Assembly: GCA_934096405.1 (NCBI GenBank)
Contig: CAKOLW010000003.1
Location: 3,282-67,281 of the forward strand
Length of the DNA: 64,000 nt
DNA from: an uncultured Bacilli bacterium
GTDB lineage: Bacteria; Bacillota_I; Bacilli_A; RF39; UBA660
Direction: 5' to 3'
Position 1 is the stretch's first letter, and every line of letters begins with the position of its first letter. Positions 1,278-64,000 of the stretch are shown here, piece after piece. Below the pieces are notes generated by a model, which did not search any database, was not told the origin of the DNA, and saw nothing but the letters and a program-made list of their open reading frames with translations. A program made the position numbers and the translations under genes.

Positions 1278-1554
1278 TAATAATTTTATTGATCCATTTT
1301 ATACTTTATATAATGTTATAGATTTACATGGATTTGATAAAGAATATGCTTTATTTAAGGTAAATGAATTTATTAGTGATAGTCTTAAATTAAAAAAGTA
1401 TGACTTAATTATAATTCATGGAAAAGGGACTGGTGTATTAAAGAATTCTATACATGAGTTTTTAAAACACGATAAAAGAGTTATTGAATATAAAATTGAT
1501 AATTATAATGATGGACAAACTATAGTTAGGTTAGGTGAAATAAATGAAAAATAA
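1252..1554 (+). CDS. Smr (small MutS-related) domain protein
   Basis: IDLHG...IIIHGKGTGVLK is the typical Smr domain pattern. It overlaps both neighbouring genes, which suggests translational coupling. Confidence 0.7.
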   Translation: MKYMKKINNNNFIDPFYTLYNVIDLHGFDKEYALFKVNEFISDSLKLKKYDLIIIHGKGTGVLKNSIHEFLKHDKRVIEYKIDNYNDGQTIVRLGEINEK

Positions 1555-2998
1555 AAATGGTTTTACATTAGTTGAATTGCTAGCAGTTATTGCTTTAATA
1601 GGAGTAATAATGCTTTTAGTAGCACCTAAAGTTATTAATGTATTTAATGATAGTAAAAAAACTGCTTTTTATGATGAAGTAGTTAGTTTATATAACAATG
1701 CTTATACAACTTATGCTAGTAGATTATCAGAAGGTGATACAAGTAAAAGATATTGTTTAGGAGAAGATGAAACTTTAAATAAGTTAGAAATAAAAGATAA
1801 GAATAATTTTTATTATGATATACAATTAAATAATGAAGGAAAAGTAATAAAAATTAAAGTTAAAAATAAGAATTATAATATTTCTATATCTAATAGTAAT
1901 GGATTAGACAAAAGTGATATAAAAGTTGAAAGTGTTCAAGTTAATGATAAAACTCAATATTTAAATTGTAGTGGAGAGGGATTAACTTTGACACAAACTT
2001 TGTTAAGAGATAATCCAATAGTAAGTGAAAGAACTGATTTTTCACCATATCATGATGAGCCTATCGAAAATGGAACAATTTATAAAACTAATGAAACAGA
2101 AGATGGAAGTATAGTATATTATTACTATGGTAATATAAACAACAATTGGTTTAAGTTTGCTAATTATTATTGGCGAATAATAAGAACTAATGAAAATGGT
2201 GGAATAAGGTTATTATTTGTAGGAAAGAACCATGATACAATTGATGATAGTAAATTGTATAGTACTACTAGAAAATATAAAGATTTAACTGGTATTTCTT
2301 CTGATCCAATGTATGTTGGATTTATGTATGGAACAAGTGGGTCTTTAGAAAATAATAGAACAAATGAAAACATTAGTACTATATTAGAAGAGTTAGAATC
2401 ATGGTATGAAAAAAATATTTCATATAAATATGAAAAGTATATTAGTATGGATGCAATTTATTGTAATGATAGAAGCATTGGTAGTGGTACTTATTCTACT
2501 TCTTCATCCGATTATTTCAGATATGGTGCTTCTGTTAGATTATCTAATAAAACGCCTTCTTATAAATGTGGAGGAAATGGTAATGGTGGTACATTTGCTA
2601 CTGCCGGTGATGCTGATAAGTTTAGTGTAAGTAAAGCTTCAGGAGGAAATGGAGAATTAATTTACCCAATTGCTTTAATAACTTTAGATGAAATAGTTTT
2701 TGCTGGTGGTCCATATCCAAATGTTTGGTATTTTAGTACAAGTACTGGAAATACTTTGATTGAATATTATTCTTGGTGGACTATGACACCTATTAATTGG
2801 AACAATGGAAATTCAAGAGTAGCAGCAATTAATGGTGCAATTTATCCGGGAAGTTTCTCTAGTTTAAACATTGATTCTTCAGGAGGAGATTTGGCTGTTA
2901 TGAGACCTGTAATTTCACTAGATAAATGTGTTAAATTAAATGGTACTGGAACTGCAACTGATCCTTATGTCGTTGATGAAGATGCTAGTACTTGTTAG
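1544..2998 (+). CDS. Paralog P1: type IV prepilin-leader protein carrying the conserved YWRIIRTN...VRPVISL...STC core
   Basis: N-terminus MKNKNGFTLVELLAVIALIGVIM is a class III prepilin signal (G|FTLVE with Glu at +5). The rest aligns with 7 other ORFs in the window (LRDNP, NNWFKF, YWRIIRTNENGG, YVGFMYG, AIYCNDRS, YPIALITLDE, WWTMTP, MRPVISLDKC, DPYVVDEDASTC). Confidence 0.85.
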   Translation: MKNKNGFTLVELLAVIALIGVIMLLVAPKVINVFNDSKKTAFYDEVVSLYNNAYTTYASRLSEGDTSKRYCLGEDETLNKLEIKDKNNFYYDIQLNNEGKVIKIKVKNKNYNISISNSNGLDKSDIKVESVQVNDKTQYLNCSGEGLTLTQTLLRDNPIVSERTDFSPYHDEPIENGTIYKTNETEDGSIVYYYYGNINNNWFKFANYYWRIIRTNENGGIRLLFVGKNHDTIDDSKLYSTTRKYKDLTGISSDPMYVGFMYGTSGSLENNRTNENISTILEELESWYEKNISYKYEKYISMDAIYCNDRSIGSGTYSTSSSDYFRYGASVRLSNKTPSYKCGGNGNGGTFATAGDADKFSVSKASGGNGELIYPIALITLDEIVFAGGPYPNVWYFSTSTGNTLIEYYSWWTMTPINWNNGNSRVAAINGAIYPGSFSSLNIDSSGGDLAVMRPVISLDKCVKLNGTGTATDPYVVDEDASTC

Positions 2999-3008
2999 GA
3001 GGTATTGA

Positions 3009-4418
3009 ATGAAGAAAAGTAAAAAAGGATTTACATTGGTTGAACTATTAGCAGTTATTGCTTTAATAGGAGTAATTATGCTAATAGTTGCACCTAATGT
3101 TATAAGATTGTTTAAAAAGGGAACTAAGTCTGCATTTAAAAATGAAGTATTAACTATATATAATAGTGTGTATCCTACATATTTATCAAGAACTAGTGAT
3201 GGAGATTATTCAACTAGGTTTTGTTTTACACATGGTATAGGTGATTCATTGGATGTAGAAAATAAAGAAAATATTTCTTATGACATTTCTATTGATGATG
3301 ATGGTAATATAACAAAATTTACTGTTATTAATGATGATTATGTATTTAAAGGAAATAAAATTACTAAAAAAGATATTAAATCAAATAATATTAAAGAAAA
3401 AACTAATAGTGATGTAATAATATGTGATAATATACCTTTAACATTGTCACAAGCAATGTTGAGAGATAATCCGACAAGAAACGTAAGAAGTAATAATGAT
3501 GATATAACTGACTTTGTAGGACTATTTACTGAGAATACTACTGGGACATTGTTTACTTCAACAGAAAGTATAAGTGGAATAACTGATGTGCCACAAGAAG
3601 TATACTATTATGCTGGAAATACAACAAATAACTGGGTAAAATTCGGAGGATTTTACTGGAGAATAATAAGAACAAATCATGATGGAAGTGTAAGATTACT
3701 TTACTCCGGAACAAGCTCTGATACAACAAACGGTTATATTGGAACAAGTGCATATAATAGTTCAGCTAATAGCACAAAATATGCGGGATATAAGTATGGA
3801 GAAGATACTTCTTATGATACAATGACAAATAATACAATAGATAGTACAGTAAAAACATATATAGATGCATGGTATAAAAATAATTTAACAAATTATACAA
3901 AATACTTGAGTACAAGTGCAGTATATTGTAATGATAGAGGTATAAGTGGAATATATTCAGCAAGTACTAGATATTATTATGAATCATATACAAGAGCATA
4001 TTCATATTTAACACCAACTTATGATTGTTATAATCAAAAAGATGCGTTTAGTGTAGATAATACAAGTGCTAAATTAAATTACCCAATAGCTTTAATGACA
4101 TTTGATGAAATGTGGTTTGCTGGAAGTTGGAGAAATCCATCATGGAGTAGTCAATATGCTTGGTTACACACAAATAGTAAAGGAAATTCAATCACAGGTA
4201 ATACTAGATGGTGGTCTTTGTCACCTAATCGTTGGGATGGAAAAAATTCTTATCAGTGGAGTTGTGCTTTTGATGGTGATGCATATTTAGCAATGAGTAG
4301 TACAAACTCTAATTATGGTGTCCGTCCTGTAATATCATTAAAATCATGTGCTAAAGTAACAGGAACAGGAACTGCTGATAATCCATATGTAGTGGATGAA
4401 AAAAATTCTTCGTGCTAA
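3009..4418 (+). CDS. Paralog P2: type IV prepilin-leader protein with the conserved core (subtype A)
   Basis: MKKSKKGFTLVELLAVIALIGVIM prepilin leader. The core contains TGTLFTSTESISGITDVPQEVYYYAGNTTNNWVKFG, YWRIIRTNHDGSVRLLY, AVYCNDRG, YPIALMTFDE, WWSLSP, VRPVISLKSC and NPYVVDEKNSSC. Confidence 0.85.
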   Translation: MKKSKKGFTLVELLAVIALIGVIMLIVAPNVIRLFKKGTKSAFKNEVLTIYNSVYPTYLSRTSDGDYSTRFCFTHGIGDSLDVENKENISYDISIDDDGNITKFTVINDDYVFKGNKITKKDIKSNNIKEKTNSDVIICDNIPLTLSQAMLRDNPTRNVRSNNDDITDFVGLFTENTTGTLFTSTESISGITDVPQEVYYYAGNTTNNWVKFGGFYWRIIRTNHDGSVRLLYSGTSSDTTNGYIGTSAYNSSANSTKYAGYKYGEDTSYDTMTNNTIDSTVKTYIDAWYKNNLTNYTKYLSTSAVYCNDRGISGIYSASTRYYYESYTRAYSYLTPTYDCYNQKDAFSVDNTSAKLNYPIALMTFDEMWFAGSWRNPSWSSQYAWLHTNSKGNSITGNTRWWSLSPNRWDGKNSYQWSCAFDGDAYLAMSSTNSNYGVRPVISLKSCAKVTGTGTADNPYVVDEKNSSC

Positions 4419-4463
4419 GTATTGTAATAGATAAAATAATTTGATATAATTAAGTTACTTGAT

Positions 4464-4493
4464 GAGTGGGACAGAAATCCCACTCTTTAATTT
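4464..4493 (+). terminator. Intrinsic terminator after P2
   Basis: GAGTGGGA-cagaaa-TCCCACTC followed by TTTAATTT. Confidence 0.7.
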
Positions 4494-4508
4494 GATAAGG
4501 AGGATATA

Positions 4509-4766
4509 GTGAAAGAAAAGATATTAGAAGTAGTTACTGAGCCATTAAAAACTATTGGTGTAGAAGTAACTGATGTTAAGTTTGAAAAAGAAGATGGAGT
4601 AGATACATTATTTATTACAATTAATAATGGAAATATAGTTGATACTGAATTATGTGCTAAAGCAAGTGAAATAATTAATCCATTATTAGATACTTTAGAT
4701 ATACCAGAGTTAAATAATGAATATGTATTAGATGTAGGAAGTGAGGTTTCAGAAGATGAACAATAA
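4509..4766 (+). CDS. rimP: Ribosome maturation factor RimP, N-terminal domain only (truncated)
   Basis: GTG start after AAGGAGG. It sits directly upstream of nusA. The sequence LEVVTEPL...GVEVTDVKFEKEDGVDTLFITI is RimP-like, but it stops at 85 aa where the canonical SSPG motif and the C-terminal domain should follow. Confidence 0.6.
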   Translation: MKEKILEVVTEPLKTIGVEVTDVKFEKEDGVDTLFITINNGNIVDTELCAKASEIINPLLDTLDIPELNNEYVLDVGSEVSEDEQ

Positions 4767-5811: not shown

Positions 5812-5820
5812 GGTGTAAAT

Positions 5821-8217: not shown

Positions 8218-8555
8218 TGAAATTAAAAGGAGAAAGAGTAGCTTCTGATTTATTAAAAGAACTTGGCATGATTTTACTTACTGATGCGAAAGATGAAGAT
8301 TTTAAATATGTTACATTAACTTATGCAACTGTTACAAATGATTTATCTTTTGCTAAAGTTTATTTTACTACATTAGATAATGAAAATAAGGATAAAGTTT
8401 TAAAAGACTTAAATAATGCAAGTGGCTATTTTAGAAGTAGTTTAGCTGGTAAATTGAATATTAGACATATTCCAGAAATAAGATTTGTATATGATGAGTC
8501 AATTGAATATGGTCAAAAAATAGAAAAGATAATTGAAAAAATTAATGAAGAATAA
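8217..8555 (+). CDS. rbfA: Ribosome-binding factor A
   Basis: RVASDLLKELGMIL...VTNDLSFAKVYF...IRHIPEIRFVYDES. The start overlaps the infB stop (TAATG). Confidence 0.9.
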   Translation: MKLKGERVASDLLKELGMILLTDAKDEDFKYVTLTYATVTNDLSFAKVYFTTLDNENKDKVLKDLNNASGYFRSSLAGKLNIRHIPEIRFVYDESIEYGQKIEKIIEKINEE

Positions 8556-8651
8556 TGGACAGAATAAATAAAATTTAGTATAATGTATACAGATGGACAT
8601 ATTGAATACAATATAAAAAGAGTTCACTTAACTTTAGTCGGTCAGGTGTTC

Positions 8652-30497: not shown

Positions 30498-30502
30498 GAT
30501 AA

Positions 30503-44802: not shown

Positions 44803-47800
44803 AGAATAGGAATGATAAAAATGGTTAAAGTAAGAAAGTCTATAATTATATTTGGAATAATATCAATTGGCTTAACTATCTGTTTATTAGGCTCTTTAGA
44901 TAAAAATGAATCTAATAATAAATTAATTGGTATTTTAGAGAATACTACTTCTATAGATAACTATAGTACTGCTTTAACTGTGTTTTATAATTCTTTAGAT
45001 AAGTCTAATAATGAGGACGATAGAAATAAAAATTTATTAGAGACAACTATGTTTAATTGTAATAGTGGTGGATGTACTTCATTAGATAATTTCAAAAATA
45101 TAGGATTTTTAACTAAATATGAATATGATTTAATCGGTGGAGATAATTCATATTTATATAATTATTCTGATTATTATGTAATTAATAATGAAGGTAATAT
45201 TGAATCATTAAGTGGAGATAGTAATAGTGGTATCAGACCAACAGTTTATTTAAATGAAGGAACTAAAGTAACTGGAAGTGGTACAGTTAATGATCCATAT
45301 AAAATAAGTCACTATAAAGATATTAATTTTATTGCTTATACATTTAATGGAAAAGAGACTGATATTAAATATTCAGAATTGATTAAAACTAAAGCAATAA
45401 AGGCAATTAATTGTGAAAATGGAACTAAGGCAACTTGGGATACAGAAGAGAATGTAATAAAATTTAAAGATACAAAAGTACCTGACTTTTGTACTATAGA
45501 TTTTACAGATGGAATACAGATAACTTTAAATGCAACTAATGGAACAGTAATGACACCAGTAACAAGAGTAGTAGCCAATAAAGGTGAAACTACATATACT
45601 GTTACTCCAAATAGTGGTTATAAATTAACTGGTTCAAGTATCAGTTGTGATGGAGGAGCTACTATAGAATTAACTAATAAAGGAGTTAAAATATCTAATA
45701 TAACAAAAAAACAAACATGTAAAATAACATTGACTAAGAGTGGCCCATTCAAAGAAGGAACATTAGCTGAGAAAATATTATTAGATAATTCAAGATTGGC
45801 TTCACGTTCTAATTTCGAAACGTTTGGTGCTACTTTAGATTTGCCAAATATCATTTATACTACCAATAATACTGAAGATGGAAGTACGGTTTATTATTAT
45901 TCAGGCAACAATGCTAACAACTGGATTAAGTTTGGCAAAGAAACAACCGAAGGTCGTTGCACTTATGAAAATGAAGAAGTTTTTTATAGTAAAGAAGGAA
46001 AATATAATAAAATAACTACCGAATCAGAATGTAATTCTAAAACTGTTTGTTTAGAATATGGTAGACCAATATTCTACGATTATAGTTGTAGTGGAACTTA
46101 TTATAATAATACTTATAAAAGGGCTACATGGGTAGCATCCAAATCAAATCAAGATACTTATTGGAGAATAATTCGTACAAACGAAGATGGCGGATTAAGA
46201 TTACTTTATGTCGGTCCTAATCCAGAAACAAAAATGGGATATATTGGTCAAGCACAGTATAATAATACAGGCGATACCATACAAAATACTGATTCTATGT
46301 ATGTAGGATATATGTATGGGACAATTTCAGATAAACGAACTAATACAAATAGTAGTACAATCAAGGAATATTTAGAAAACTGGTATAAAAATAATTTATT
46401 TGCAAAATATGATAAATATATAAGTAAAACAGCAATTTATTGTAATGATAGAAGTTCTACATATGTTTCTGGAAATGGAAGCACTTATTCTTCAAGCACA
46501 AGACTTAATATTTTGTCGCCTTCTTATAGGTGTGGTGATACTGGTTTTGGAACACTTGTTGAAGAATTTCAAGCAATTAACGATAAGTTTAGTGTTAGCA
46601 AGGCTTCAGGTGGTAATGGACAATTAACTTATCCGATTGCATTAATAACTGCTGATGAAATAGCCTTTGCTGGAGGTAGAAACCAAAAATACGATGAGAA
46701 TGATGCATCATTAAATTTTAATAATAAATTATATTATTATGCTAATAGTAATGGAGGAAGTGTGATAGGTGCTAGCAAAAGTTGGTGGACAATGAGTCCA
46801 AATCATGATGGCGCAAGTTATTCAAGTCCATATCATATTCCAACTTTAAAATTAGTAGGGGGATATCAAATTACACAATATACTGGCACTTATTATGGAG
46901 CCTTATATACTGGTTATTCATATGGTGTTGGTTTAGTTCGTCCAGTCATTTCCTTAAAATCTTGTGTTAAATTTAAAAATGGAAATGGAACTTCTGGAAA
47001 TCCATATGAAATTACAATAGATGATGCTTGTGCTAAAGCAGAAAATTAAAAAATAGAATAGGAATGATAAAAATGGTTAAAGTAAGAAAATCTATAATTA
47101 TATTTGGCTTAATATCAATTGGTTTGACTATATGTTTATTAGAGTCTTTAGATAAAAATGAATCTAATAATAAATTAATTGGTATTTTAGAGAATACTAC
47201 TTCTATAGATAACTATAGTACTGCTTTAACTGTGTTTTATAATTCTTTAGATAAGTCTAATAATGAGGACGATAGAAATAAAAATTTATTAGAGACAACT
47301 ATGTTTAATTGTAATAGTGGTGGATGTACTTCATTAGATAATTTCAAAAATATAGGATTTTTAACTAAATATGAATATGATTTAATCGGTGGAGATAATT
47401 CATATTTATATAATTATTCTGATTATTATGTAATTAATAATGAAGGTAATATTGAATCATTAAGTGGAGATAGTAATAGTGGTATCAGACCAACAGTTTA
47501 TTTAAATGAAGGAACTAAAGTAACTGGAAGTGGTACAGTTAATGATCCATATAAAATAAGTCACTATAAAGATATTAATTTTATTGCTTATACATTTAAT
47601 GGAAAAGAGACTGATATTAAATATTCAGAATTGATTAAAACTAAAGCAATAAAGGCAATTAATTGTGAAAATGGAACTAAGGCAACTTGGGATACAGAAG
47701 AGAATGTAATAAAATTTAAAGATACAAAAGTACCTGACTTTTGTACTATAGATTTTACAGATGGAATACAGATAACTTTAAATGCAACTAATGGAACAGT

Positions 47801-48027
47801 AATGACACCAGTAACAAGAGTAGTAGCCAATAAAGGTGAAACTACATATACTGTTACCCCTAATAGTGGTTATAAGTTAGCTAATTCAAGTATCAGTTGT
47901 GATGGAGGAGCTACTATAGAATTAACTAGTACTGGAGTTAAAATATCTAATATAACAAAAACACAAATTTGTAAAATAACATTGACTAAGAGTGGTCCAT
48001 TTAAAGAAGGAACATTAGCTGAGAGAA
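44803..48027 (+). repeat. Tandem direct repeat (unit 2252 bp); the first ~970 bp of each unit are near-identical
   Basis: 44803..45775 aligns with 47055..48027 at a constant offset of 2252. The identical antisense track ORFs 45336..45578 and 47588..47830 show 100% identity across at least 243 nt. Identity decays after GCTGAGA at 45773/48025. Confidence 0.9.
44812..47049 (+). CDS. Paralog P6: TM anchor plus mini-module plus Ig-like repeat plus conserved core with a Cys-rich insert
   Basis: N-terminal TM segment. The mini-module is FLTKYEYDLIGG...GIRPTVYLNEGTKVTGSGTVNDPYKI. Next comes TYTVTPNSGYKL. The core has LAEKILLDN, NNWIKFG, YWRIIRTNEDGGLRLLY, AIYCNDRS, KFSVSKASGGNGQLTYPIALITADE, WWTMSP and VRPVISLKSC. 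The C-terminus is ACAKAEN. The start may be the ATG at 44821. Confidence 0.85.
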   Translation: MIKMVKVRKSIIIFGIISIGLTICLLGSLDKNESNNKLIGILENTTSIDNYSTALTVFYNSLDKSNNEDDRNKNLLETTMFNCNSGGCTSLDNFKNIGFLTKYEYDLIGGDNSYLYNYSDYYVINNEGNIESLSGDSNSGIRPTVYLNEGTKVTGSGTVNDPYKISHYKDINFIAYTFNGKETDIKYSELIKTKAIKAINCENGTKATWDTEENVIKFKDTKVPDFCTIDFTDGIQITLNATNGTVMTPVTRVVANKGETTYTVTPNSGYKLTGSSISCDGGATIELTNKGVKISNITKKQTCKITLTKSGPFKEGTLAEKILLDNSRLASRSNFETFGATLDLPNIIYTTNNTEDGSTVYYYSGNNANNWIKFGKETTEGRCTYENEEVFYSKEGKYNKITTESECNSKTVCLEYGRPIFYDYSCSGTYYNNTYKRATWVASKSNQDTYWRIIRTNEDGGLRLLYVGPNPETKMGYIGQAQYNNTGDTIQNTDSMYVGYMYGTISDKRTNTNSSTIKEYLENWYKNNLFAKYDKYISKTAIYCNDRSSTYVSGNGSTYSSSTRLNILSPSYRCGDTGFGTLVEEFQAINDKFSVSKASGGNGQLTYPIALITADEIAFAGGRNQKYDENDASLNFNNKLYYYANSNGGSVIGASKSWWTMSPNHDGASYSSPYHIPTLKLVGGYQITQYTGTYYGALYTGYSYGVGLVRPVISLKSCVKFKNGNGTSGNPYEITIDDACAKAEN

Positions 48028-49253
48028 TACTTTTAAATAATCCAAATGTAGAGACAAGAAGTGATTTTAGTAATACATTTAATGCCGATTCTTTTAATGT
48101 AAATAAGGGTTTATTTACTATTTATAAGATTTCTAGCACTTCTGGTAATCAAATGACAGAAGATACAGATAATGATGGAATGGGTGAGGATGTATATTAT
48201 TATGCTGGATATACAGTTAATAACTGGGTAAAGTTTGGAACATATCCAACAGATTTATATTATTATAGTTATGTTTTAAATTCACGACTTTATACTGGCT
48301 ATGTTACTTCTAATTCTTCTTGTTGCCCTAGTGGTGTTACTTGTACCTGCAGTAAAATGTATTCTAAAGGTGATGATATTTTATGGAGAATAATTCGTAC
48401 TAATGAAGATGGCGGAGTAAGATTGTTATATACAGGTTTTAAGAATGGCATAATTAATAACGGAGAACTTATACAAAATAATTATACTTATACTATTCCA
48501 GGCTCTAGTGATAAATTTAACGATTTGGGTTATATGTATGGAATGGCTACCAGTTACAATGCGGCAACGATCGAGAACGCTAGACTAAATACTAATGATA
48601 GTGTTCAAAAAAATAGAATTGATACATGGTATCAAAATAATTTATTAAATGATTATGACAAATATATTAGTAAAACAGCTATATATTGTGATGACAGAAG
48701 CATTTCAGTAAGCAATTCAACTGAATGGTTTGGGACAGCTAAAAGATCTAGTAATAATACGCCTTCTTATTTATGCGGTAGCAATGGTACTGGTGGATTA
48801 TTTGAAAGTACTCAGGCAATAGAAGATAAATTTAGTGTAAGCAAAAGTTCTGGAGGAAATGGACAATTAAAATATCCAATTGGAATGATGACTGTTGATG
48901 AAGTTATCTTTGCTGGAGCACAATCTGGAAAAACTTCAGTATCTCCCTATTTTTGGTTGTTAAGAGATAAATATAATCAACAAAGTATGAATTCTTTCCA
49001 ATTATTTAGCTATCGAACTTTTCAAAAAACTACAACTTATGGAATTTATCGTTATATTATGACTCCTATTGTTAATAATAGTTCTAGTTCAATACTTTAT
49101 GATGTTTTAAATACAGATGGTTATACTGGAACTAATGGTTTAAGACCTGTTACTTCATTAAAATCTTGTGTTAAGTGGCTCAAAGGCGACGGTACAGCTA
49201 ACCACCCTTACGAAGTTACAATAGATGCTGCTTGTGCTAACACAGAAAATTAA
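47064..49253 (+). CDS. Paralog P7: tandem copy of P6 with a near-identical N-terminal ~320 aa and a diverged core
   Basis: The first ~320 aa are near-identical to P6. The core has NNWVKFG, LWRIIRTNEDGGVRLLY, AIYCDDRS, KFSVSKSSGGNGQLKYPIGMMTVDE and LRPVTSLKSC. The WWxxSP motif is degenerate. The C-terminus is ACANTEN. Confidence 0.85.
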   Translation: MIKMVKVRKSIIIFGLISIGLTICLLESLDKNESNNKLIGILENTTSIDNYSTALTVFYNSLDKSNNEDDRNKNLLETTMFNCNSGGCTSLDNFKNIGFLTKYEYDLIGGDNSYLYNYSDYYVINNEGNIESLSGDSNSGIRPTVYLNEGTKVTGSGTVNDPYKISHYKDINFIAYTFNGKETDIKYSELIKTKAIKAINCENGTKATWDTEENVIKFKDTKVPDFCTIDFTDGIQITLNATNGTVMTPVTRVVANKGETTYTVTPNSGYKLANSSISCDGGATIELTSTGVKISNITKTQICKITLTKSGPFKEGTLAERILLNNPNVETRSDFSNTFNADSFNVNKGLFTIYKISSTSGNQMTEDTDNDGMGEDVYYYAGYTVNNWVKFGTYPTDLYYYSYVLNSRLYTGYVTSNSSCCPSGVTCTCSKMYSKGDDILWRIIRTNEDGGVRLLYTGFKNGIINNGELIQNNYTYTIPGSSDKFNDLGYMYGMATSYNAATIENARLNTNDSVQKNRIDTWYQNNLLNDYDKYISKTAIYCDDRSISVSNSTEWFGTAKRSSNNTPSYLCGSNGTGGLFESTQAIEDKFSVSKSSGGNGQLKYPIGMMTVDEVIFAGAQSGKTSVSPYFWLLRDKYNQQSMNSFQLFSYRTFQKTTTYGIYRYIMTPIVNNSSSSILYDVLNTDGYTGTNGLRPVTSLKSCVKWLKGDGTANHPYEVTIDAACANTEN

Positions 49254-49954: not shown

Positions 49955-51679
49955 ATGACATTTATTAATGATGAAACAATAAATAGAATTAGAAGAGAGA
50001 ATAATATAGTAGATGTTGTAGGTAGTTATATACCTCTAACTAAAAAAGGAAAAAACTATTTTGCTGTATGTCCATTTCATGATGATCATTCTCCATCAAT
50101 GTCTATAAGCGAAGAAAAACAAATATATAGATGCTTTGTATGTGGAGCAAGTGGTAATGTTATATCATTTGTCAAAGATTATGAAAAAGTCAGTTTTAAA
50201 GAAGCTTTAGAAATATTAGGTAAAAGAATAGGACTTGATATAAAAAGTGATGATAAGAAAGTAAATACTCCTTATAAAGGGTTTTATGATATATATAATG
50301 TTTATAAAGATTATTATAAAAATAATTTGTATTCTATAAAAGGTAAAAATGCTAGAGAATATTTATTAAATAGAAAATTAGATAAAGAAACAATAGATTA
50401 TTTTGATATCGGTTTATCTTTAGATGGAGAATTATCTAAGAGTATAGTAAATAAGTATGATAGAAATAAATTAGTTGATTTGGGATTATGTAGTAATGAC
50501 CTGAAAGATTTATTTCATAATAGAATTATGTTTACTATTAAAGATAATGATGGCAATACTGTTGCTTTTAGTGGAAGAAAGTATACTGAAATTGATGCTC
50601 CAAAATATATTAATAGTAAAGAGACTGTTATATTTAAAAAAGGTAGCATTTTATATAATTTATGTAATTCTAAAGAATATATAAGAAAAAGTAAAGAGAT
50701 AATTATAAGTGAAGGATTTATGGAAGTAATCAGGTTACATACTATAGGAATAGATAATACTGTTGCTTTGATGGGAACTAGTTTTACTAAGGAACACTTA
50801 AATATTATTAAAAATCTTAAATGTAATGTAGTACTAAATTTAGATCAGGATGAGGCTGGTAAGACGGCTACTATATTGATTGGAGATATGCTTGTTAAGA
50901 ATGGAATTGATCCTACTGTTATAATATTTAGTAAATATAAAGATGCAGATGAGTTAATAAGTAATCTTGGAGAAGATTCATTTAAGGAAGCATATAAGTC
51001 TAGAGTTAATTTTATAGATTTTAAATTAAATTATCTTAAGAAAAATAAAGATTTAAGTAATTCTGAAGATTTAAGTAAATATATAAGAGAAAGTATAGAT
51101 GCTATTAATTTAATAGATGATGATATATTAAGAGATATTAAGATTAAGGAACTTTCTAAGACATATGATATAAGTGAAGATGTTATTAGAAACAAAATAA
51201 CTAATAATAATGTTATAGAAAGAAAAGAGAAACCTAAAGTAGTTAAAAAGAATATTAAATATGATAAATTTGATGTAAGTGAAATAAGATTGTTATATTT
51301 AATGATGAATAATCCGGAGTTAATAAAATATTATGAAATTAATTTAGGATATTTAAATGATAGCAATAGAAAGTTACTTGCTGATGCAATTATAAATTTT
51401 AAAAATAGAAATAAAGTATTTGACTTAGGGGATTTTATTTGTTACACTATGCAAGTGGAAGAACTTGATAAAGTTTTTAAGAGTGTTATGGAATATCATA
51501 ATATTGATAATTATACTATGGATGAGGTAGATGATTATATTAATGTTATAAAAAAGAAAAAAGTAGATGAACAAGTTAATAAACTTAAAGACAAGATGAA
51601 AAATACAATAGATATAAATGAGAAAAAGAAGTTAGCTAGTAAGATTGAAAATATTAAGAGGGAAGTGTTAAAATGGTAA
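49955..51679 (+). CDS. dnaG: DNA primase
   Basis: Zn-ribbon [13 protein letters not shown]...[15 protein letters not shown] domain ([20 protein letters not shown]). Confidence 0.95.
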
Positions 51680-52770
51680 ATGAATTAAAAACATTTGAAG
51701 AAATATTAAATGATTTAGTTAGTGAAGGAAAAAAACAAGGTTATTTAACTTATGAGCAAATTGCTAAAAAAACTAGTAGTTTAGAGTTAGATAGTAATAA
51801 TCTAGATGAACTTTATAATGTATTAAGTGAGAATCAAATTGAAGTTAGAAGTGAAGATGAAGGAGATACTGATGATACTTTAGCATTAGAAGAACCGGAA
51901 CTTAATATAGAAACTATAAGTAATGAAAGCAAAGATATGTCAGTTAATGACAATGTAAGAATGTATTTAAAAGATATTGGTAAAATTAGCTTACTTAGTT
52001 TAGAAGAAGAGCAAGAATTAAGTCATAGAATAGCTAACGGAGATGAAGAAGCTAAGAAGATACTTGCTGAATCTAACTTAAGATTAGTTGTTAGTATTGC
52101 TAAAAGATATGTAGGACGTGGATTATTATTCTTAGATTTAATTCAAGAAGGTAATATTGGACTTATGAAGGCAGTAGATAAGTTTGATTTTGAAAAGGGA
52201 TTTAAGTTTAGTACTTATGCTACTTGGTGGGTTAGACAAGCAATTACAAGAGCTTTAGCTGATCAAGCAAGAACAATAAGAGTTCCTGTACATATGGTTG
52301 AAACTATTAATAAGATGGCAAGAATTGAAAGACAAATGGCCCTTGATTTAAATCGTGAACCTACTGATGAAGAATTAGCTAAAAAGATGGGATTAACTTT
52401 AGATAAGATAGTAGAAATTAGAAAGATTGGACAAGATCCAGTTAGTTTAGAAACACCAATTGGTGAAGAGGATGATTCTCATTTAGGTGATTTCTTAGCT
52501 GACAAAGATACTATGAGTCCAGAAGAAGCAGCTACTTATGAATCTTTAAAAGAAGAACTTAAAAAAGTATTACAAACACTTACTAAAAGAGAAGAAGAAG
52601 TTTTAGAGTTAAGATTTGGTTTATATGATGGAACATGTCATACTTTGGAAGAAGTTGGTAAAAAATTTGGTGTTACTAGAGAAAGAATTAGACAAATAGA
52701 AGCTAAAGCACTTCGTAAGTTAAGACATCCTAGTCGTGCTAAAAAGTTAAAGGATTTCTTAGTTGACTAG
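51673..52770 (+). CDS. rpoD: Primary sigma factor RpoD/SigA
   Basis: Regions 1.1-4.2 are present: [83 protein letters not shown]. Confidence 0.97.
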
Positions 52771-58676: not shown

Positions 58677-58723
58677 TTATTTTTTGATACAAAATACTTG
58701 AACTCAATAAGATATTTTGGTAG

Positions 58724-58908
58724 AATTAAAGAGTAAAAAGTAGAAGGAGCACAAAACTATGGGGCAAATAGATTTCTTTCATAATAAAACAATAGTTTGT
58801 TATGGGGGGGTCAGTATTATTAACTAACTCCCATAGTTTTTTCGTTATATTAAATTCATGGGCACCAGTCTATGAGTTTTTTAGTGCTCTAAAAATGGAG
58901 GAAAGACA
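58724..58908 (+). promoter_or_regulatory. Conserved 5' leader L2 of paralog P8: short ORF, G7 tract and two terminator-like hairpins
   Basis: TGGTAGAAT extended -10 at 58718..58726. It has the same conserved box as L1. A 22-codon ORF lies at 58759..58827 (MGQIDFFHNKTIVCYGGVSIIN). G7 is at 58804..58810. Hairpin 1 is TATGGGGG...CTCCCATA plus GTTTTTT (to 58842). Hairpin 2 is TCATGG-gcaccagt-CTATGA plus T6 (58856..58882). Confidence 0.6.
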
Positions 58909-60570
58909 ATGAAAGAAAAGAAGTATTTAATTTATGGAATATGTTTATCACTATTAATAGTTATAGGAGTAACACTAGCATACTTTATAACAGAGATAGA
59001 AGGAGATAAAAAAGATGTTACATTAAATACAGGAGATTTAAGAGTAATATTTAATAATGGAGAGAAAATAGAAGGAATAGATATAGAACCAGGATGGAGT
59101 ATAACAAAAACATTTAGTATAGAAAATAAATCTAAGACAGAATATAAATACAATATAGTAATACAAGATTTAGTAAATACATTTGTATCAGATAACTTAG
59201 TATATAAAATAACAAGTACAAATAATGGACACAATATGGCAGATTATGAAGTATTACCAAAATCAGAAACAACAGAAGATACAATACTAACATATAGTAC
59301 AACAATATCAGGGAAAACGACACAAGAATATACAATAGAAGTAAAGTTTAAAGAAGAAGATAGAAACCAATATGAAGATATGGGTAAAACTATAACAGGT
59401 AAGATTTATATTACTAAAGGCACAAAAAATTCAACTTTTTTAACTCAGGCAATACTAAGAGATAACCCAACAATAAGTGAAAGAACAGATTTTATAAATG
59501 TTAATATTGAAAACACAACAGGAACAATATATAAAACAAATAAAACAGAAGATGGTAGTTATGTATACTATTATTCTGGAAATACAACAAATAATTGGAT
59601 TAAATTTGGCAAGTATGAAACAGACAGGTTTATGTCAACTAATTGTTATAATTCTTTTCGTTGTGAGGGCAATAGTCTTAATGAATGCTATGCTGCTGGT
59701 GGTATAGCTTGTTACTCTGCTTGGAATATAGGCGATGACATATATTGGAGAATAATTCGTACTAATGAAGACGAAAGCATAAGACTTTTATATTTTGGTA
59801 CTAAAATGAATGTAAACAATAGAAGTGTTATATCTACTTCTGAATATAATATAAATAATAGTGATCCTATGTATGTAGGCTATATGTATGGAACAAGTGG
59901 TTCATTAGAAAATAATAGAACAAATAGAAATGATAGTACAGTAAAAACATATATTGATACATGGTATCAAAATAATCTATTAACAAATTATGATAAATAT
60001 ATAAACAAAACTGCAATATATTGTAATGATAGAAGTGTTCCAAATAATAAATATTCCACATCTAGTAAATTTATATATGCATCTGCTCAAAGAATAGGCA
60101 CGGGAGCACCATCATATAAATGTGGTGTAGATACAAACAATGAATTAATTGAAAGCACACAGGCTGTTGCAGATAAATTTAGTGCAAGTACAGAAGGCGG
60201 AGGAAATGGACAATTAAAATATCCAATTGCTTTAATGACGGGAGACGAAATGGCATTTGCAGGTGGCTACAATGGTAGCGAAAAATCAGATGACCCGTAC
60301 CCATGGCATATATCTAACAGAGATGGAAAATGGAGATATCACCCTTTTTATTCATTATCGCCTGGAACTAATAGTCAACTAGTATTCATGGGTGCAAATT
60401 TACCACCAGCATCCATTGAATTTGATGCTGACATCGGCAGCTTTAATTCTATTAGTGGTGAAGAATTTGGAGTTGTTCCGGTCATTTCCCTATCTTCTTG
60501 TGTCAAAGTAACAGGAACAGGAACTGCTGATGATCCATATGTTGTTGATGAAGAAGGGTCTACATGTTAA
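58909..60570 (+). CDS. Paralog P8: TasA/SipW-type signal plus N-terminal domain plus conserved core with a Cys-rich insert
   Basis: Signal VIGVTLAYFITEIEG. The N-terminal domain is about 75% identical to that of P3. The core has TGTIYKTNKTEDGSYVYYYSGNTTNNWIKFG, YWRIIRTNEDESIRLLY, YVGYMYGTSGSLENNRTN, AIYCNDRS, KFSASTEGGGNGQLKYPIALMTGDE, VVPVISLSSC and DPYVVDEEGSTC. Confidence 0.85.
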   Translation: MKEKKYLIYGICLSLLIVIGVTLAYFITEIEGDKKDVTLNTGDLRVIFNNGEKIEGIDIEPGWSITKTFSIENKSKTEYKYNIVIQDLVNTFVSDNLVYKITSTNNGHNMADYEVLPKSETTEDTILTYSTTISGKTTQEYTIEVKFKEEDRNQYEDMGKTITGKIYITKGTKNSTFLTQAILRDNPTISERTDFINVNIENTTGTIYKTNKTEDGSYVYYYSGNTTNNWIKFGKYETDRFMSTNCYNSFRCEGNSLNECYAAGGIACYSAWNIGDDIYWRIIRTNEDESIRLLYFGTKMNVNNRSVISTSEYNINNSDPMYVGYMYGTSGSLENNRTNRNDSTVKTYIDTWYQNNLLTNYDKYINKTAIYCNDRSVPNNKYSTSSKFIYASAQRIGTGAPSYKCGVDTNNELIESTQAVADKFSASTEGGGNGQLKYPIALMTGDEMAFAGGYNGSEKSDDPYPWHISNRDGKWRYHPFYSLSPGTNSQLVFMGANLPPASIEFDADIGSFNSISGEEFGVVPVISLSSCVKVTGTGTADDPYVVDEEGSTC

Positions 60571-60708: not shown

Positions 60709-62724
60709 ATGAAAAATTTAGTAATAGTAGAAAGCCCTAGTAAGAGCAAGACTATTGAAAAATATTTAGGAAAAGATTATAAAGTTACTTCTAGTAAGGG
60801 ACATATTAGAGATTTGACTACAACTGGTAAATATGGATTAGGAATAGATTTGGAAAATCATTATAAACCTAGTTATAAAGTTATTACTGGAAAAAGTAAA
60901 TTAGTAAAAGAACTAAAAAAAGAAATAAGTAATAGTGATTATGTTATACTAGCAACCGACCCTGACCGTGAGGGAGAAGCAATAAGTTGGCATTTAAAGG
61001 ATACTTTAGGTATTGATAAAAACTATGGTAGAGTAGTGTTTAATGAAATAACAGAAAATGCTATTAAAGAGGCGTTTAAAGAACCAAGAGATATCGATAT
61101 GGATTTAGTACACAGTCAAGAAGCAAGAAGAATATTAGATAGGATTATTGGATTCAGATTAAGTAAACTTATGCAAAATAAGACTGAAGGAAAAAGTGCT
61201 GGGCGTGTTCAAAGTGTTGCTTTAAAATTAATTGTAGATAGAGAAAGAGAAATTGAGGCTTTTAATAGTGAAGAGTATTTTACTATAGAAGCAGAATTTA
61301 ATGATTTTGAAGCAAGTTTATCTAAATATAAAGATAAAAAGATTGAGATTAAATCAAATGTTGAAGCAGATAATATATTAAATTCTTTATCTAATGCATT
61401 TACAATAGAAAGTGTAGAAAGTAAAGAAAAATCTAAGAAAAGTAAACCTGTATTTACTACAAGTACTTTAACACAAATGGCAAGTATTAAATTAGGCTTT
61501 AGTGCATCTAAAACTATGAGATTAGCGCAAGGATTATATGAAGGTAAAAATGTTGGTAATGAAACTGTCGGTTTAATTTCATATATGAGAACTGATAGTA
61601 CAAGATTAAGTGATGTGTTTGTAAGTGATGCTAAGAAATTTATTACTAATAATTATGGTAAACAATATGTAGGAAATGTAAAAGTTACTAAAAATAAAGA
61701 AAATGTACAAGATGCTCATGAAGGTATAAGACCTACTAGTTTAAATAGAACACCAGAAAGTATGAAGCTTCATTTAACTAGTGATGAATACAAATTATAT
61801 AATTTAATTTATATAAGAGCATTATCTAGTTTAATGGCAGATGCTAAAGTACTTGCGACTACAGTTACATTAGATAATAATGATTATAAATTCACAGCTA
61901 GTGGGCAAGTTGGAGTATTTGATGGATATTTAAAGATTTATAAAGAGTTTGAAAAATCAGAAGATAAAGTATTACCTGACTTTAGTTCTTATAAATCAAA
62001 TATATTAGTAAGTAAAGATATTCATAAAACAAGTCACTTTACTGAACCACCTGCTAGATTTACAGAAGATAAATTAATTAAAGAATTAGAAAGTTTAGGA
62101 ATAGGTAGACCTAGTACTTATGTTAAAATAATTGAAGTATTAAAAGAAAGAAAGTATATAAGTGTTGTTGATAAGAAGTTTGAACCTACTACAGTTGGTA
62201 TTCAAGTTACTGATAAACTACAAGAGTTCTTTTCAAGTATTATAAATGTTAAATATACTAGTGATATGGAAACTGATTTAGACTATGTTGCCGAAGGTAA
62301 AATGGTTTGGTATGATTTAATAGATAAATTTTATAAGGATTTTGAACCACTTTTAGAAACTGCTTTTAAAAAAATGGAAAAGGAAGTCCCAGAAGAGACT
62401 GGAGAAATATGTCCAGAGTGTGGTAAACCACTTGTTTATAGGTATGGAAAGTATGGTAAATTTGTGGCATGTTCTGGTTATCCTGAATGTAAGTATGTAC
62501 CTAAAGTAGAAAAAGAAGTAAGTGTTGTTTGTAAGTGTCCTTTATGTGATGGAGATATAGTTGTTAAAAAGACTAAAAGAGGTAAAGATTTTTATGGATG
62601 TAGTAATTATCCAAAATGTAAAAACGCCTTTTGGGATAAACCTACTGGAGAAATATGTCCAGAGTGTGGAAACTTACTTGTAGAAAAGAAAGGCGAAAAG
62701 TTCTGTCCTAATTGTAAAAAATAA
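60709..62724 (+). CDS. topA: DNA topoisomerase I
   Basis: TOPRIM domain (LVIVESPSKSKTIEKYLG, ATDPDREGEAISWH), active-site region SYMRTDS and three C-terminal Zn-ribbons (CPECGKPL..., CPLCDG..., CPECGNLL...). Confidence 0.97.
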   Translation: MKNLVIVESPSKSKTIEKYLGKDYKVTSSKGHIRDLTTTGKYGLGIDLENHYKPSYKVITGKSKLVKELKKEISNSDYVILATDPDREGEAISWHLKDTLGIDKNYGRVVFNEITENAIKEAFKEPRDIDMDLVHSQEARRILDRIIGFRLSKLMQNKTEGKSAGRVQSVALKLIVDREREIEAFNSEEYFTIEAEFNDFEASLSKYKDKKIEIKSNVEADNILNSLSNAFTIESVESKEKSKKSKPVFTTSTLTQMASIKLGFSASKTMRLAQGLYEGKNVGNETVGLISYMRTDSTRLSDVFVSDAKKFITNNYGKQYVGNVKVTKNKENVQDAHEGIRPTSLNRTPESMKLHLTSDEYKLYNLIYIRALSSLMADAKVLATTVTLDNNDYKFTASGQVGVFDGYLKIYKEFEKSEDKVLPDFSSYKSNILVSKDIHKTSHFTEPPARFTEDKLIKELESLGIGRPSTYVKIIEVLKERKYISVVDKKFEPTTVGIQVTDKLQEFFSSIINVKYTSDMETDLDYVAEGKMVWYDLIDKFYKDFEPLLETAFKKMEKEVPEETGEICPECGKPLVYRYGKYGKFVACSGYPECKYVPKVEKEVSVVCKCPLCDGDIVVKKTKRGKDFYGCSNYPKCKNAFWDKPTGEICPECGNLLVEKKGEKFCPNCKK

Positions 62725-62761
62725 ATTTATGTGATAGAATTAACCTAAGGGAGGTAAAGTT

Positions 62762-63220
62762 ATGTTAAATAAAAATGGATGGGGTATTGTAGAAGCTTTA
62801 GTATTTATATTAATATTTGCAGTTTGTTTATTATTTAGTTTTTGGGGATTAAGAAGATTTGGATTAGTTGACGAAAATTGGCAATTTTATCCTTCAAATA
62901 TAACTAAAAATGATGATAAAAAAGATAATAAAACTGATGTAAAAAAATTTAGTTATACAGATTTAGAAGAAAAGATGGTTGAAAGTACTAAAAATTATAT
63001 TAAAGATTTTTATAATAATGAACTTGGATTAGATACTTTAAATATAAGAGTAAGTCAGTTAGAAGATAATGGCTATTTAGGTGATCTAAAAGATGATAAG
63101 AATAGAGATTGTTCTGGTTATGTTGCTGTTTATGTAGAAAATGAAGAAACAATTTATAAACCTTATTTAAAATGCAAAAAATATGAAACTAAAGGTTATG
63201 AAGAAAGAAAAGATGATTAA
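62762..63220 (+). CDS. Pseudopilin-like protein (degenerate prepilin leader)
   Basis: In MLNKNGWGIVEALVFILIFAVCLL, a Gly is followed by a hydrophobic segment with Glu at +5. The C-terminus has the Cys pair CSGYVAVYV...YLKC. Confidence 0.5.
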   Translation: MLNKNGWGIVEALVFILIFAVCLLFSFWGLRRFGLVDENWQFYPSNITKNDDKKDNKTDVKKFSYTDLEEKMVESTKNYIKDFYNNELGLDTLNIRVSQLEDNGYLGDLKDDKNRDCSGYVAVYVENEETIYKPYLKCKKYETKGYEERKDD

Positions 63221-63543
63221 TGAATAAGAGAATATTTATAGTATGGGGCTTATTAATTGCTTTATTAGTTTTAGGTATTGGATATATAGGTATTACTAAG
63301 AAAGAGGAAATAAAATATATTTCTTTAAAGAATGAAGTTAAAAAGGCTACTAAGGAATATATAAATGATAATAATATAAAGGTATATCCTTTTAAAATAA
63401 CTACGGAGGAATTAGAAGAAAAAGATTATTTAAAAGAATTAAAAATTAATAATAAGGTATGTGCTGGTGATATTGTAGTTAATAAAAAATTTATATTTTA
63501 TAGTTATGATATAAAGTTTACTTGTGTTAATGTAGAAAAATAA
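63220..63543 (+). CDS. Small membrane-anchored protein, possibly a minor pseudopilin
   Basis: N-terminal TM segment IFIVWGLLIALLVLGIGYIG and a C-terminal Cys pair (VCAGDIVV...KFTC). The start overlaps the previous stop. Confidence 0.4.
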   Translation: MNKRIFIVWGLLIALLVLGIGYIGITKKEEIKYISLKNEVKKATKEYINDNNIKVYPFKITTEELEEKDYLKELKINNKVCAGDIVVNKKFIFYSYDIKFTCVNVEK

Positions 63544-63614
63544 TATTTTTTCTACATTTTATTGTTTTAAAGCCAGTTTTATGGTATATTTTAATTATCA
63601 TATGGAGGCTTGTT

Positions 63615-64000
63615 ATGAAGAAAACTATAATTATCTTATTAGTATGTATTTTGCTTAGTATTAGTACCTTTTTCGGCGTCAGTAGAAGTATTAAAATTGA
63701 TTATTTAACTACTAAAGATAACTTAAAGAATGTATTAGATAATCTTTATAATACTTTTGATATGAAAGATTTTTACTTTCAAAGTACAGATAAATTTAAT
63801 TGTAATGAAAAAGAATGTAAATCTAGTATTTTTAATAATATAGGTATTCTTTCATATTCTGAGCTTAAAAGTTATTTATATAATGATAATCCATATTTTG
63901 TATTGGATGATAATGTAATTAGAAATGTTAAATCTACTAATCTTGTTGAAGATATTAATAGTACTACTTCTAGTCGTGTTAGATCAACATTAAATGTTAG
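63615..64000 (+). CDS. Paralog P9 (partial, runs off the right edge): TM anchor plus the P6/P7-type N-terminal mini-module
   Basis: Not in the track. ATG at 63615 follows GGAGG. My translation is MKKTIIILLVCILLSISTFFG...FNCNEKECKSSIFNNIGILSYSELKSYLYNDNPYFVLDDN...SSRVRSTLNV. This parallels P6 FNCNSGGCTSLDNFKNIGFLTKYEYDLIGG...SGIRPTVYLN. Confidence 0.6.
   Translation, partial: MKKTIIILLVCILLSISTFFGVSRSIKIDYLTTKDNLKNVLDNLYNTFDMKDFYFQSTDKFNCNEKECKSSIFNNIGILSYSELKSYLYNDNPYFVLDDNVIRNVKSTNLVEDINSTTSSRVRSTLNV

Follow-up and report, generated by a model that had tools for sequence, protein, structure and literature searches.

A dispersed family of predicted lectin-fold surface proteins and a candidate poly-G leader switch in an uncultured gut Bacilli bacterium

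A 64-kb stretch of DNA from an uncultured gut Bacilli bacterium (contig CAKOLW010000003.1; hereafter the window, with positions counted over the whole stretch) carries a dispersed family of large paralogous genes, each named here by the letter o and its start coordinate. Their products probably form a library, specific to this lineage, of ligand-binding proteins of the adhesin or lectin type that are secreted or displayed at the surface, a subset of which would be switched by a poly-G leader. The C-terminal head shared by these proteins would bind host, dietary or microbial ligands; two of the products, o1544 and o3009, would be built into a pilus as modular pilins; and a subset of the copies, here o30691 and o58909, would be expressed stochastically via translation-dependent anti-termination.

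More tentatively, we can envisage layered variation on a single scaffold, in which some 30 or more dispersed lectin-head paralogs per genome (as counted in two relatives), about a third of them gated by a poly-G attenuator and some lineages hypermutated by diversity-generating retroelements (DGRs), might give a combinatorial, heritable and reversible display. The genomes concerned belong to uncultured gut Bacilli for which metagenomes are the sole source. Lectin-fold heads that take up 22% of 64 kb are concrete candidates for the interface with host, diet or phage, and the likely stochastic switches, together with DGR hypermutation in relatives, add to the interest of these candidates.

The shared head, its mounts and its variable segment

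An earlier reading of this DNA, made without database searches (the sequence-only reading), had described nine members of a secreted family with a collinear core of about 300 aa that it could not assign. The eight complete open reading frames (ORFs) are present where it had placed them, all on the + strand, and align collinearly over a C-terminal core at 40–55% identity with 62 invariant columns, the motifs it had quoted being present in the alignment. The core is not uniform in length (324–428 aa) because of an insertion hot spot after core residues 65–67 (mean ~27 aa), which is Cys-rich in the window copies. The ninth ORF, whose core is unseen because the window end cuts it, matches only the N-terminal module of o44812 and o47064 (28% identity to that of o44812, E 8e-7); its slot holds a family gene in a related genome (locus L066). 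Together the nine ORFs, the ninth being partial, cover 14,381 nt (22.5% of the window), in keeping with the earlier estimate of about 22%. In a repeat comparison within the window the DNA-level repeat families connect exactly the eight complete genes. The family members are the following:

o1544, 1544-2998, + strand: 484 aa; type IV prepilin N-terminus KNG↓FTLVE (Pfam N_methyl, TIGR02532); core 1988-2995 and hypervariable segment 2774-2920, both from the core alignment
o3009, 3009-4418, + strand: 469 aa; type IV prepilin N-terminus; starts 10 nt past o1544; core 3444-4415 and hypervariable segment 4209-4340, both from the core alignment
o18684, 18684-20408, + strand: 574 aa; in the polC/rsmE gap; signal anchor with AYF motif, beta-sandwich module; core 19218-20405; hypervariable segment 20202-20330; weak DUF6273 match at residues 484-550
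o30691, 30691-32211, + strand: 506 aa; in the gap between a hypothetical gene and infC; signal anchor and beta-sandwich module; leader 1 upstream; core 31234-32208 (the sequence used for the structure model); hypervariable segment 32005-32130
o37642, 37642-39435, + strand: 597 aa; in the eno/ileS gap; signal anchor with AYF motif, beta-sandwich module; core 38230-39432; hypervariable segment 39232-39357
o44812, 44812-47049, + strand: 745 aa; 3' of queA; signal anchor, mini lectin-like module (~aa 79-166), InlB-B-repeat-like region; core 45763-47046; hypervariable segment 46783-46956
o47064, 47064-49253, + strand: 729 aa; tandem partner of o44812; core 48015-49250; hypervariable segment 48951-49160
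o58909, 58909-60570, + strand: 553 aa; in the gap between a CotZ-like gene and a 671-aa ORF (topA according to the sequence-only reading); leader 2 upstream; signal anchor and beta-sandwich module (modelled); core 59440-60567; hypervariable segment 60346-60492
ORF 63615-64000, + strand: partial, 128 aa visible; N-terminal module related to those of o44812 and o47064

By sequence, no characterised family claims the core in searches of Pfam, NCBIfam and PDB, and to this extent the earlier inability to assign it stands. Among the window copies only o18684 matches DUF6273, with 19.5 bits against a cut-off of 23.5 and over model positions 106–171; NCBIfam gave nothing for the core, and the core profile run against PDB sequences gave nothing real, only a spurious stathmin match. 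In the wider family, DUF6273 is matched by 9 of 69 members at E <= 0.01 (best E 4.8e-8), which puts the family at the border of this model. By fold, however, the core can be placed. An AlphaFold2 model of the o30691 core (325 residues, from a 107-sequence alignment) reached a predicted local distance difference test (pLDDT) score of 93.4 and a predicted template-modelling (pTM) score of 0.93, and the best Foldseek match in PDB was the IgA peptidase of Thomasclavelia ramosa (9qa6), aligned over 328 columns with E 3e-6 and probability 1.00, followed by the C-terminal domain of Legionella Lcl (DUF1566) and by C-type lectins such as CD23. Against BFVD, a viral library, 13 matches had E <= 1e-3, many of them named DUF6273, followed by DUF1566 proteins. 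Residues 31–322 of 9qa6 are annotated as DUF6273, a domain whose role is unknown according to its authors and which is dispensable for catalysis (PMC12402451); DUF6273 itself is a C-type-lectin fold and a scaffold targeted by DGRs, with the variable region at its C-terminal end (PMC10743442, PMC11792537). As judged from the predicted structure, the shared C-terminal core is shown to be an enlarged, divergent DUF6273-type C-type-lectin-fold head, which places it in a fold and not in a functionally characterised family.

The sequence-only reading had seen a likeness to DUF6273 in the last ~100 aa only, which proved too narrow: the fold alignment to DUF6273 domains (9qa6 and several proteins so named) spans 250–328 columns at probability 1.00, and in some homologs with 12–22 matched stretches the best stretch usually covers profile positions ~103–374, from YWRIIRTN to the end, a repeated unit that is likewise not confined to that region. 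The family search returned more than 6,300 homologs, and an exhaustive profile search gave 6,123 clusters at 50% identity with E <= 1e-3, 1,468 of them with E <= 1e-30. The DUF6273 scaffold, that of phage tail proteins, thereby also covers a large chromosomal family, with more than 6,000 such clusters, most of which currently lack annotation. A tblastn search of the core against 50,697 phage records gave no match, which argues that this subfamily is not phage-borne, and an exact-protein look-up of o30691 and o58909 found no identical protein on record.

The insert at the hot spot ranges from 0 to 70 aa, lies between KFGK and YWRIIRTN, has paired cysteines in the window copies and forms a second hot spot of variation; the copy whose core was modelled, o30691, carries its short form.

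It is very improbable that the core is instead an enzyme, for example one with a fold like that of the formylglycine-generating enzyme, or a structural component of a coat or surface layer. The C-type-lectin superfold does include enzymes, invariant polar residues (N, D, E, C) are numerous in the core, and the copy number and coding investment are large, all of which might suit such a role. The best fold matches, however, are non-catalytic, being the IgA peptidase's N-terminal domain (PMC12402451), phage DUF6273 tail proteins and lectins, and variability in surface hairpins combined with DGR targeting in relatives is typical of binding sites, as expected of a binding head.

All the copies have hydrophobic N-terminal anchors and conserved cysteines. 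These features, and prepilin signals above their cut-offs, speak for secretion, and the picture of an intact and dispersed paralogous family of secreted proteins is borne out. One head is found on three mounts: a prepilin helix; a signal anchor with a beta-sandwich; and a signal anchor with a mini-lectin and an Ig-like region. Neither the pilin and beta-sandwich modules nor the poly-G leader had been recorded in the sequence-only reading. The first mount, in o1544 and o3009, has both a class III signal peptide (G↓F-T-L-x-E) and the hydrophobic helix, and scores 29.6 and 30.6 bits, respectively, for PF07963 (N_methyl; cut-off 21.2) and 27.1 and 28.6 bits for TIGR02532 (cut-off 16.3). By these signatures, o1544 and o3009 are predicted to be type IV pilins of the modular kind, as the term is applied to PilB and PilC of Streptococcus sanguinis. 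In the second mount, that of o18684, o30691, o37642 and o58909, the signal anchor ends in AYF and a beta-sandwich follows, modelled with pLDDT 81. In the third, the mini-module of o44812 and o47064 aligns in hhalign with the final 80 core residues (probability 88%, E 2.9e-6), and in both proteins an InlB-B-repeat-like region comes after it. Among the related loci the AYF-type anchor is the commonest N-terminus, and at least five genes have a prepilin-type motif.

The anchor ending in AYF and the motifs behind it, TGDLRV and EPGW..TKTFS.EN, resemble TasA. A TasA/camelysin (Peptidase_M73) identity of the beta-sandwich module was not accepted, the scores being sub-threshold and the fold matches generic. 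The SipW-type signal TIGR04088 reached 13.2 bits against 19; the best fold matches of the module are generic carbohydrate-binding modules, with donor-strand filament subunits lower down; 7ueg, an archaeal bundling pilin, comes no higher than rank 36, and TasA is not among the top fold matches. The N-terminal module had no match among PDB sequences.

Within the core, column entropy peaks at residues 251–293, in the beta-hairpins between WWxxSP and VRPVISL. The most variable part of the core is thus shown to be the hairpin site that DGRs mutate in this fold. In the window the hypervariable segments are 42–70 aa long with a G+C of 0.25–0.39. In sister genomes, copies of this very segment that are rich in Asn lie downstream of family genes. 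A complete DGR cassette on a family target is present at locus L042 (CAKOIJ010000029, 1157-3940): its variable region (VR, 1157-1279) and template repeat (TR, 1531-1660) differ by 26 mismatches and no gaps, 22 of the 26 falling at TR adenines, and are accompanied by a bAvd-like ORF (2500-2844; E 1.2e-7, sub-threshold at 32.6 bits against a 40-bit cut-off) and by a reverse transcriptase (2828-3940; RVT_1 E 2.7e-15, with the motif LPIGNMSSQ). The same genome has another target in trans (L033), and two loci of UMGS1658, L051 (10739-11250) and L045, repeat the same TR/target pattern; in L033, L051 and L045, 65–77% of the mismatches are at template A. The L051 target also has a poly-G leader (8476-8603), and a probable further template repeat lies at L072 1712-1831. 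When template repeats and reverse transcriptases were sought in ~1 Mb of related loci, the reverse transcriptase was found only in L042, and template repeats also in L051 and probably in L072. A 'repeat' in L010 was rejected as a template repeat: it is a 3' gene fragment, and its mismatches are not adenine-specific. Our literature search found no prior link between DGRs and RF39.

In the window itself, a repeat search and a Pfam scan of 30 flanking ORFs of at least 150 aa, ORFs 60709-62724 and 62762-63220 excepted, showed no template repeat, Avd or reverse transcriptase, and the template repeats of the sister genomes have no BLAST match there. The window scaffold is of the DGR type, and there is no evidence of current DGR action in the window. 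We therefore regard it as unlikely that the window copies are current targets of a DGR elsewhere in the genome, and that adenine mutagenesis, rather than paralog divergence or recombination, accounts for their differences; were it so, it would be a compatible added layer. The complete cassettes on this family in sister genomes, the poly-G leader on the L051 target, and the CGT-CC(T/A) that several window copies keep at the VRP boundary, resembling a GC-rich VR end, speak for such targeting. Yet the unequal lengths of the variable segments mean that these are not the product of a single template repeat, their G+C is low where the VR in L042 is visibly G+C-richer, and the differences between paralogs span the whole core, beyond the variable segment.

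The poly-G leader

Two window copies, o30691 and o58909, are each preceded by an element of ~190 nt shared between both intergenic regions, with the following parts:

Leader 1, 30477-30664, + strand: upstream of o30691; covariance model 124 bits; fold z = -4.6
Leader 1 promoter and ribosome-binding site (RBS), + strand: -35 30477-30482; extended -10 30497-30505; RBS 30522-30528
Leader 1 ORF, 30538-30600, + strand: peptide MERIILFDLSTKLGTNFGGG, then stop
Leader 1 RNA parts, + strand: inner hairpin 30566-30581; G8 30589-30596; box 2 30610-30624
Leader 1 terminator, + strand: predicted hairpin 30634-30661; U tract end 30664
Leader 2, 58698-58882, + strand: upstream of o58909; covariance model 130 bits
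Leader 2 promoter and RBS, + strand: -35 58698-58703; extended -10 58718-58726; RBS 58743-58749
Leader 2 ORF, 58759-58827, + strand
Leader 2 RNA parts, + strand: inner hairpin 58788-58801; G7 58804-58810; box 2 58828-58842
Leader 2 terminator, + strand: predicted hairpin 58852-58879; U tract end 58882

The order is the same in both: -35, extended -10, RBS, small ORF, short hairpin, G tract, stop codons, box 2, terminator hairpin and U6, after which come the RBS and ATG of the family gene. A consensus promoter scan also picked both -35/extended -10 pairs. Translation of the small ORF is predicted from an AAGGAG-type RBS, 8–9 nt before the ATG, in both window leaders and in the main leader types, and the ORF stays open for 18–20 codons up to the G7–G10 tract in three unrelated sequence types. 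The two tracts are the sole G or C runs of six or more in the 64 kb, where chance would give ~0.2 G runs of seven or more. Box 2 is complementary to the start-codon region of the leader and forms the 3' arm of a long-range helix, and the predicted terminator is a 12-bp hairpin of ~-12 kcal/mol followed by U6, with compensatory changes and 97.5% of alignment cells paired.

Many further copies of the element turned up in related loci and in a metagenome scan. A covariance model searched over ~1.05 Mb gave 44 matches at E <= 1, of which ~38 are full-length + strand leaders. Divergent leaders occur in CAKOIJ, UMGS1658, CAG:628, CAKOIS, CAKOHL and UBA11492, those examined sitting just upstream of family genes, and 29 of the 31 assessable leaders precede family genes. 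Over both helices 96.3% of cells are paired, against 87.8% in shuffles, with compensatory changes in nine pairs and none of 500 shuffles reaching the observed value, these figures coming from an alignment fitted to the covariance model, a fit that favours the structure; slid controls paired 20–55% of cells. No family of this kind is in Rfam: a T-box was all that reached the gathering threshold, and a permissive scan with leader 1 turned up a chance match only. Our literature search found no poly-G leader attenuator.

The reading frames around the tract suggest a switch. For 38 of 40 leaders, one G-length class and no other carries the leader ORF into the terminator's 5' arm, with its stop at +7 in most leaders and at +4 to +21 in a few, while the other two classes stop 27–39 nt upstream. 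Poly-G slippage in the small ORF would set the reading frame. In two frames the ribosome would stop 27–39 nt before the intrinsic terminator and transcription would end (OFF); in the third it would enter the 5' arm and stop at +7, no hairpin would form, and the gene would be transcribed (ON). This polarity is inferred by analogy with the pil1 locus of Streptococcus gallolyticus. Under this scheme, leader 1 would be OFF at its assembled G8 and ON at G7 or G9, and leader 2 would be OFF at its assembled G7 and ON at G6 or G9.

As assembled, 29 of the 40 leaders are in an early-stop frame and 11 in the read-through frame. Their tracts are G8 (19 leaders), G9 (8), G10 (5) and G7 (1), or are interrupted (7, in either state). 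Near-identical paralogous leaders differ only in G8 versus G9, and pairs with the same upstream flank differ in the tract (AG5 in L066 versus G8 in L087; G10 in L025 versus G8 in L038). One identical 596-aa protein, P0073 (L105/L106), has a type-1 G8 leader in one sample and a type-2 read-through leader with an interrupted tract in the other, which suggests that a leader can be swapped while its gene stays the same. In the other same-protein look-ups, P0106 and P0056 had no leader, and P0082 and P0051 were found in one place each.

The leader might also be regulatory without being a heritable switch, the tract acting as RNA structure, or polymerase or ribosome slippage giving a fixed read-through, or the polarity being reversed; we think this improbable. 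In minimum-free-energy folds of two leader types the G tract pairs with a pyrimidine run upstream of it (UUCUCUUU), so that the tract may have a structural role, and G8 is modal (19/40) and identical across three samples of one locus. But the frame-dependent stops hold even in divergent leaders, which is hard to explain without frame-dependent translation. The near-identical paralogous leaders that differ only in G8/G9, the interrupted tracts in both states, and the same-flank pairs that differ in the tract also tell against this reading.

Conserved slots, replaced occupants

In a scan of species-representative genomes, the family was found only in uncultured gut lineages, namely uncultured Bacilli bacterium (Hadza and Nepal samples), uncultured Tenericutes bacterium UMGS1658, Clostridium sp. 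CAG:628 and Bacillota bacterium UBA11492. The sequence-only reading had suggested counting copies in relatives, and in the ~270 kb examined of each of two related genomes there proved to be no fewer than 31 and 27 distinct family genes, respectively. The assembly closest to the window is CAKOLN01, whose NusA, InfB and UvrC are 99% identical at the protein level. Several slots recur from genome to genome (in front of rsmE, of nusA and of the DUF2179-dnaG block, and behind eno and the two ORFs at 60709-63220); their flanking proteins are 97–99% identical, whereas their occupants are ~50% identical to any window copy. Slots are thus shown to be conserved and their occupants replaced, the members being exchanged and substituted within a large dispersed library. 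To call the copies 'inserted', as had been done, is misleading because the same intergenic slots are occupied in related genomes. Nor do the copies all stand singly between genes: their flanks are housekeeping genes, as described, but 1544/3009 and 44812/47064 are tandem pairs. The second pair is 100% identical at alignment positions 91–720 and then 40–60% identical in the core, a mosaic that points to gene conversion or module exchange.

That these genes are decaying pseudogenes, prophage or mobile cargo, or a repeat assembly artefact is extremely improbable. Relatives do hold fragments and remnants (L010 11116-11319, L087, L080), one member (P0106), whose sequence is the same in 21 contigs, has a large serine recombinase as its neighbour, and synteny breaks at family genes, with pfkB in the window versus ruvB in CAKOLN01 left of the nusA copy. 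All eight window copies, however, are intact with their invariant columns, related genomes keep the slots, the scanned ORFs include no phage or mobile genes, the phage records gave no match, and copies 40–55% identical are too divergent for assembler collapse or duplication.

Several points weigh against the ligand-binding library that we prefer as an explanation, which draws on sequence and models, with ligand, localisation and expression inferred: (i) The window copies score under the gathering threshold of DUF6273 (PF19789), and TM-scores to known structures are low (0.3–0.4), the superposition being limited to the fold core, with large elaborations on the side of the family. (ii) No pilus machinery gene is present among the 30 scanned flanking ORFs of the window, and the likeness of the beta-sandwich module to TasA/camelysin is weak (PF12389, 16.1 versus 22.5 bits). 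(iii) Of the nine window copies only two have the leader, as do 26 of 85 family genes in all, and its terminator hairpin was not called by the consensus scan, a simple scan that missed it because it has fewer than three G-C pairs. (iv) The tracts were compared in assemblies, not reads, and the G8/G9 differences may include assembly error; the P0109 locus has G8 in all three independent assemblies or samples.

The window has a G+C of 26% and a strong, uniform skew of G over C, and its + strand carries almost all genes. That the neighbours are housekeeping genes, as read earlier, was confirmed by Pfam in the scanned ORFs, among them pfkB, nusA, infB, uvrC, holA, polC, rsmE, a MiaB-like enzyme, cysS, aspS, a sigma factor, infC, rplT, femAB, eno, ileS, queA, dnaG, rpoD, trmK, a histidine kinase and a CotZ-like protein. 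In agreement with the sequence-only reading, which had seen no recombinase or transposase nearby, none was found in these 30 ORFs, nor was a reverse transcriptase. Two regions labelled 'intergenic', 1278-1543 before o1544 and 63221-63614 before ORF 63615, read as short coding sequences; the first presumably encodes an Smr-like C-terminal domain and the second, we assume from resemblance, a small membrane-anchored protein, followed by a terminator. The T-box leader (26266-26444, + strand; RF00230, 98.4 bits versus a gathering threshold of 93) lies upstream of an aspS-like gene (26477-28222). Two sigma-70 family genes (28309-29622 and 51673-52770) share a 167-nt DNA repeat at 74% identity, and the first of them is one gene upstream of leader 1.

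Relatives hold family fragments and deletion remnants. In L087 (6656-6900) and L080 (5634-6030) the leader is fused to the C-terminal part of a family gene, consistent with internal deletion, the L087 remnant keeping only the last ~20 codons; and a free-standing 67-aa 3' fragment in L010 (11116-11319), with the variable segment and the conserved end, lies behind an intact copy. Window 1-4740 and L007 6769-11453 break synteny exactly at family genes: left of nusA the window has pfkB and then the two pilin-type copies, while L007, from a 99%-identical relative, has ruvA, a 288-aa ORF and ruvB, followed by a single leader-bearing copy of the beta-sandwich type. Either the paralogs were the site of a rearrangement or one of the two sequences is misassembled. 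Also in L007, two ORFs in 233-1720 resemble IS200/IS605 TnpA and TnpB by eye and are candidates for these. P0106 (loci L091–L097), whose 21 contigs come from several studies, has a sigma-70-like gene beside it as well as the large serine recombinase and lacks a leader; it is possibly carried on a mobile element.

Comparison with known systems

The fold, its targeting by DGRs and leader-peptide phase-variable attenuation are none of them new in kind. What appear to be undescribed in the literature that we searched are the enlarged chromosomal subfamily, its scale in uncultured gut Bacilli, the head mounted on pilins, and a homopolymer leader that recurs many times per genome on a family hypermutated in relatives.

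The head has its closest counterparts in DUF6273 (PF19789) domains, including those of proteins that DGRs target in gut phages (the tentaclins and Faecalibacterium prophage targets), with which it shares the fold, the order WW..SP then (V/I)RP, and a variable beta-hairpin at the C-terminal end, which in sister genomes is a true DGR variable region (PMC10743442, PMC11792537). In spite of these similarities there are clear differences: (i) the family domain is about twice the length of the Pfam model (325–428 versus 172 aa), with extra N-terminal strands and the Cys-rich insert, and most family members escape that model; (ii) unlike the phage tail genes, the family is chromosomal, with at least 27–31 copies per genome in two relatives, and the window has no DGR. 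The best solved match is the N-terminal domain of 9qa6 (31–322), which covers essentially the whole core, is likewise secreted by a gut Firmicute and is itself an enlarged DUF6273 of ~290 aa. However, identity is 12%, with no match at the sequence level, and what is there a single accessory domain of a protease, not needed for catalysis, is here the C-terminal head of a multigene family.

As for the mounts, the beta-sandwich module of the family weakly resembles TasA/camelysin, with scores under the curated cut-offs. Like the modular pilins PilB and PilC of S. sanguinis (PMC8179133, PMC9934059), o1544 and o3009 join a canonical prepilin N-terminus to a large C-terminal module of binding type; here this is a DUF6273-like head and not a vWA or concanavalin-like module, no assembly genes lie nearby, and incorporation into a filament is only predicted.

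The Opa proteins of Neisseria, encoded by ~11 genes spread over the chromosome (PMC3745409), offer a parallel for the arrangement: in both cases paralogs are scattered among housekeeping genes with a slippage tract per gene, which here would also give combinatorial expression. The fold is unrelated, though, and the tract lies in a separate leader ORF acting via attenuation, not in the gene's own signal-peptide region, and on only ~30% of the copies.

The leader itself is best compared with the switch of pil1 in S. gallolyticus, which has been demonstrated by experiment and where changes in the number of GCAGA repeats in a leader ORF shift the stop from 39 bp upstream of a terminator to inside it, and the ribosome then blocks termination (PMC3894217, Danne et al. 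2014). Both systems have a promoter, a leader ORF with a slippage-prone repeat and an intrinsic terminator, followed by a gene for a surface structure; the stop of the short peptide lies 39 bp upstream there and 27–39 nt upstream here, and that of the long peptide within the hairpin in both. They differ in that (i) the repeat is here a G7–G10 homopolymer and there ~22 GCAGA units; (ii) pil1 is one locus, whereas here many leaders occur per genome, each before a different paralog; and (iii) the leaders described here, known from sequence alone and unrelated in sequence to pil1, have an additional long-range helix with the leader start codon and an inner hairpin. If our interpretation is true, the poly-G leader, short and modular as it is, would be the second case of leader-peptide phase variation with attenuation that we found in the literature, and the first to act genome-wide on a multigene family.

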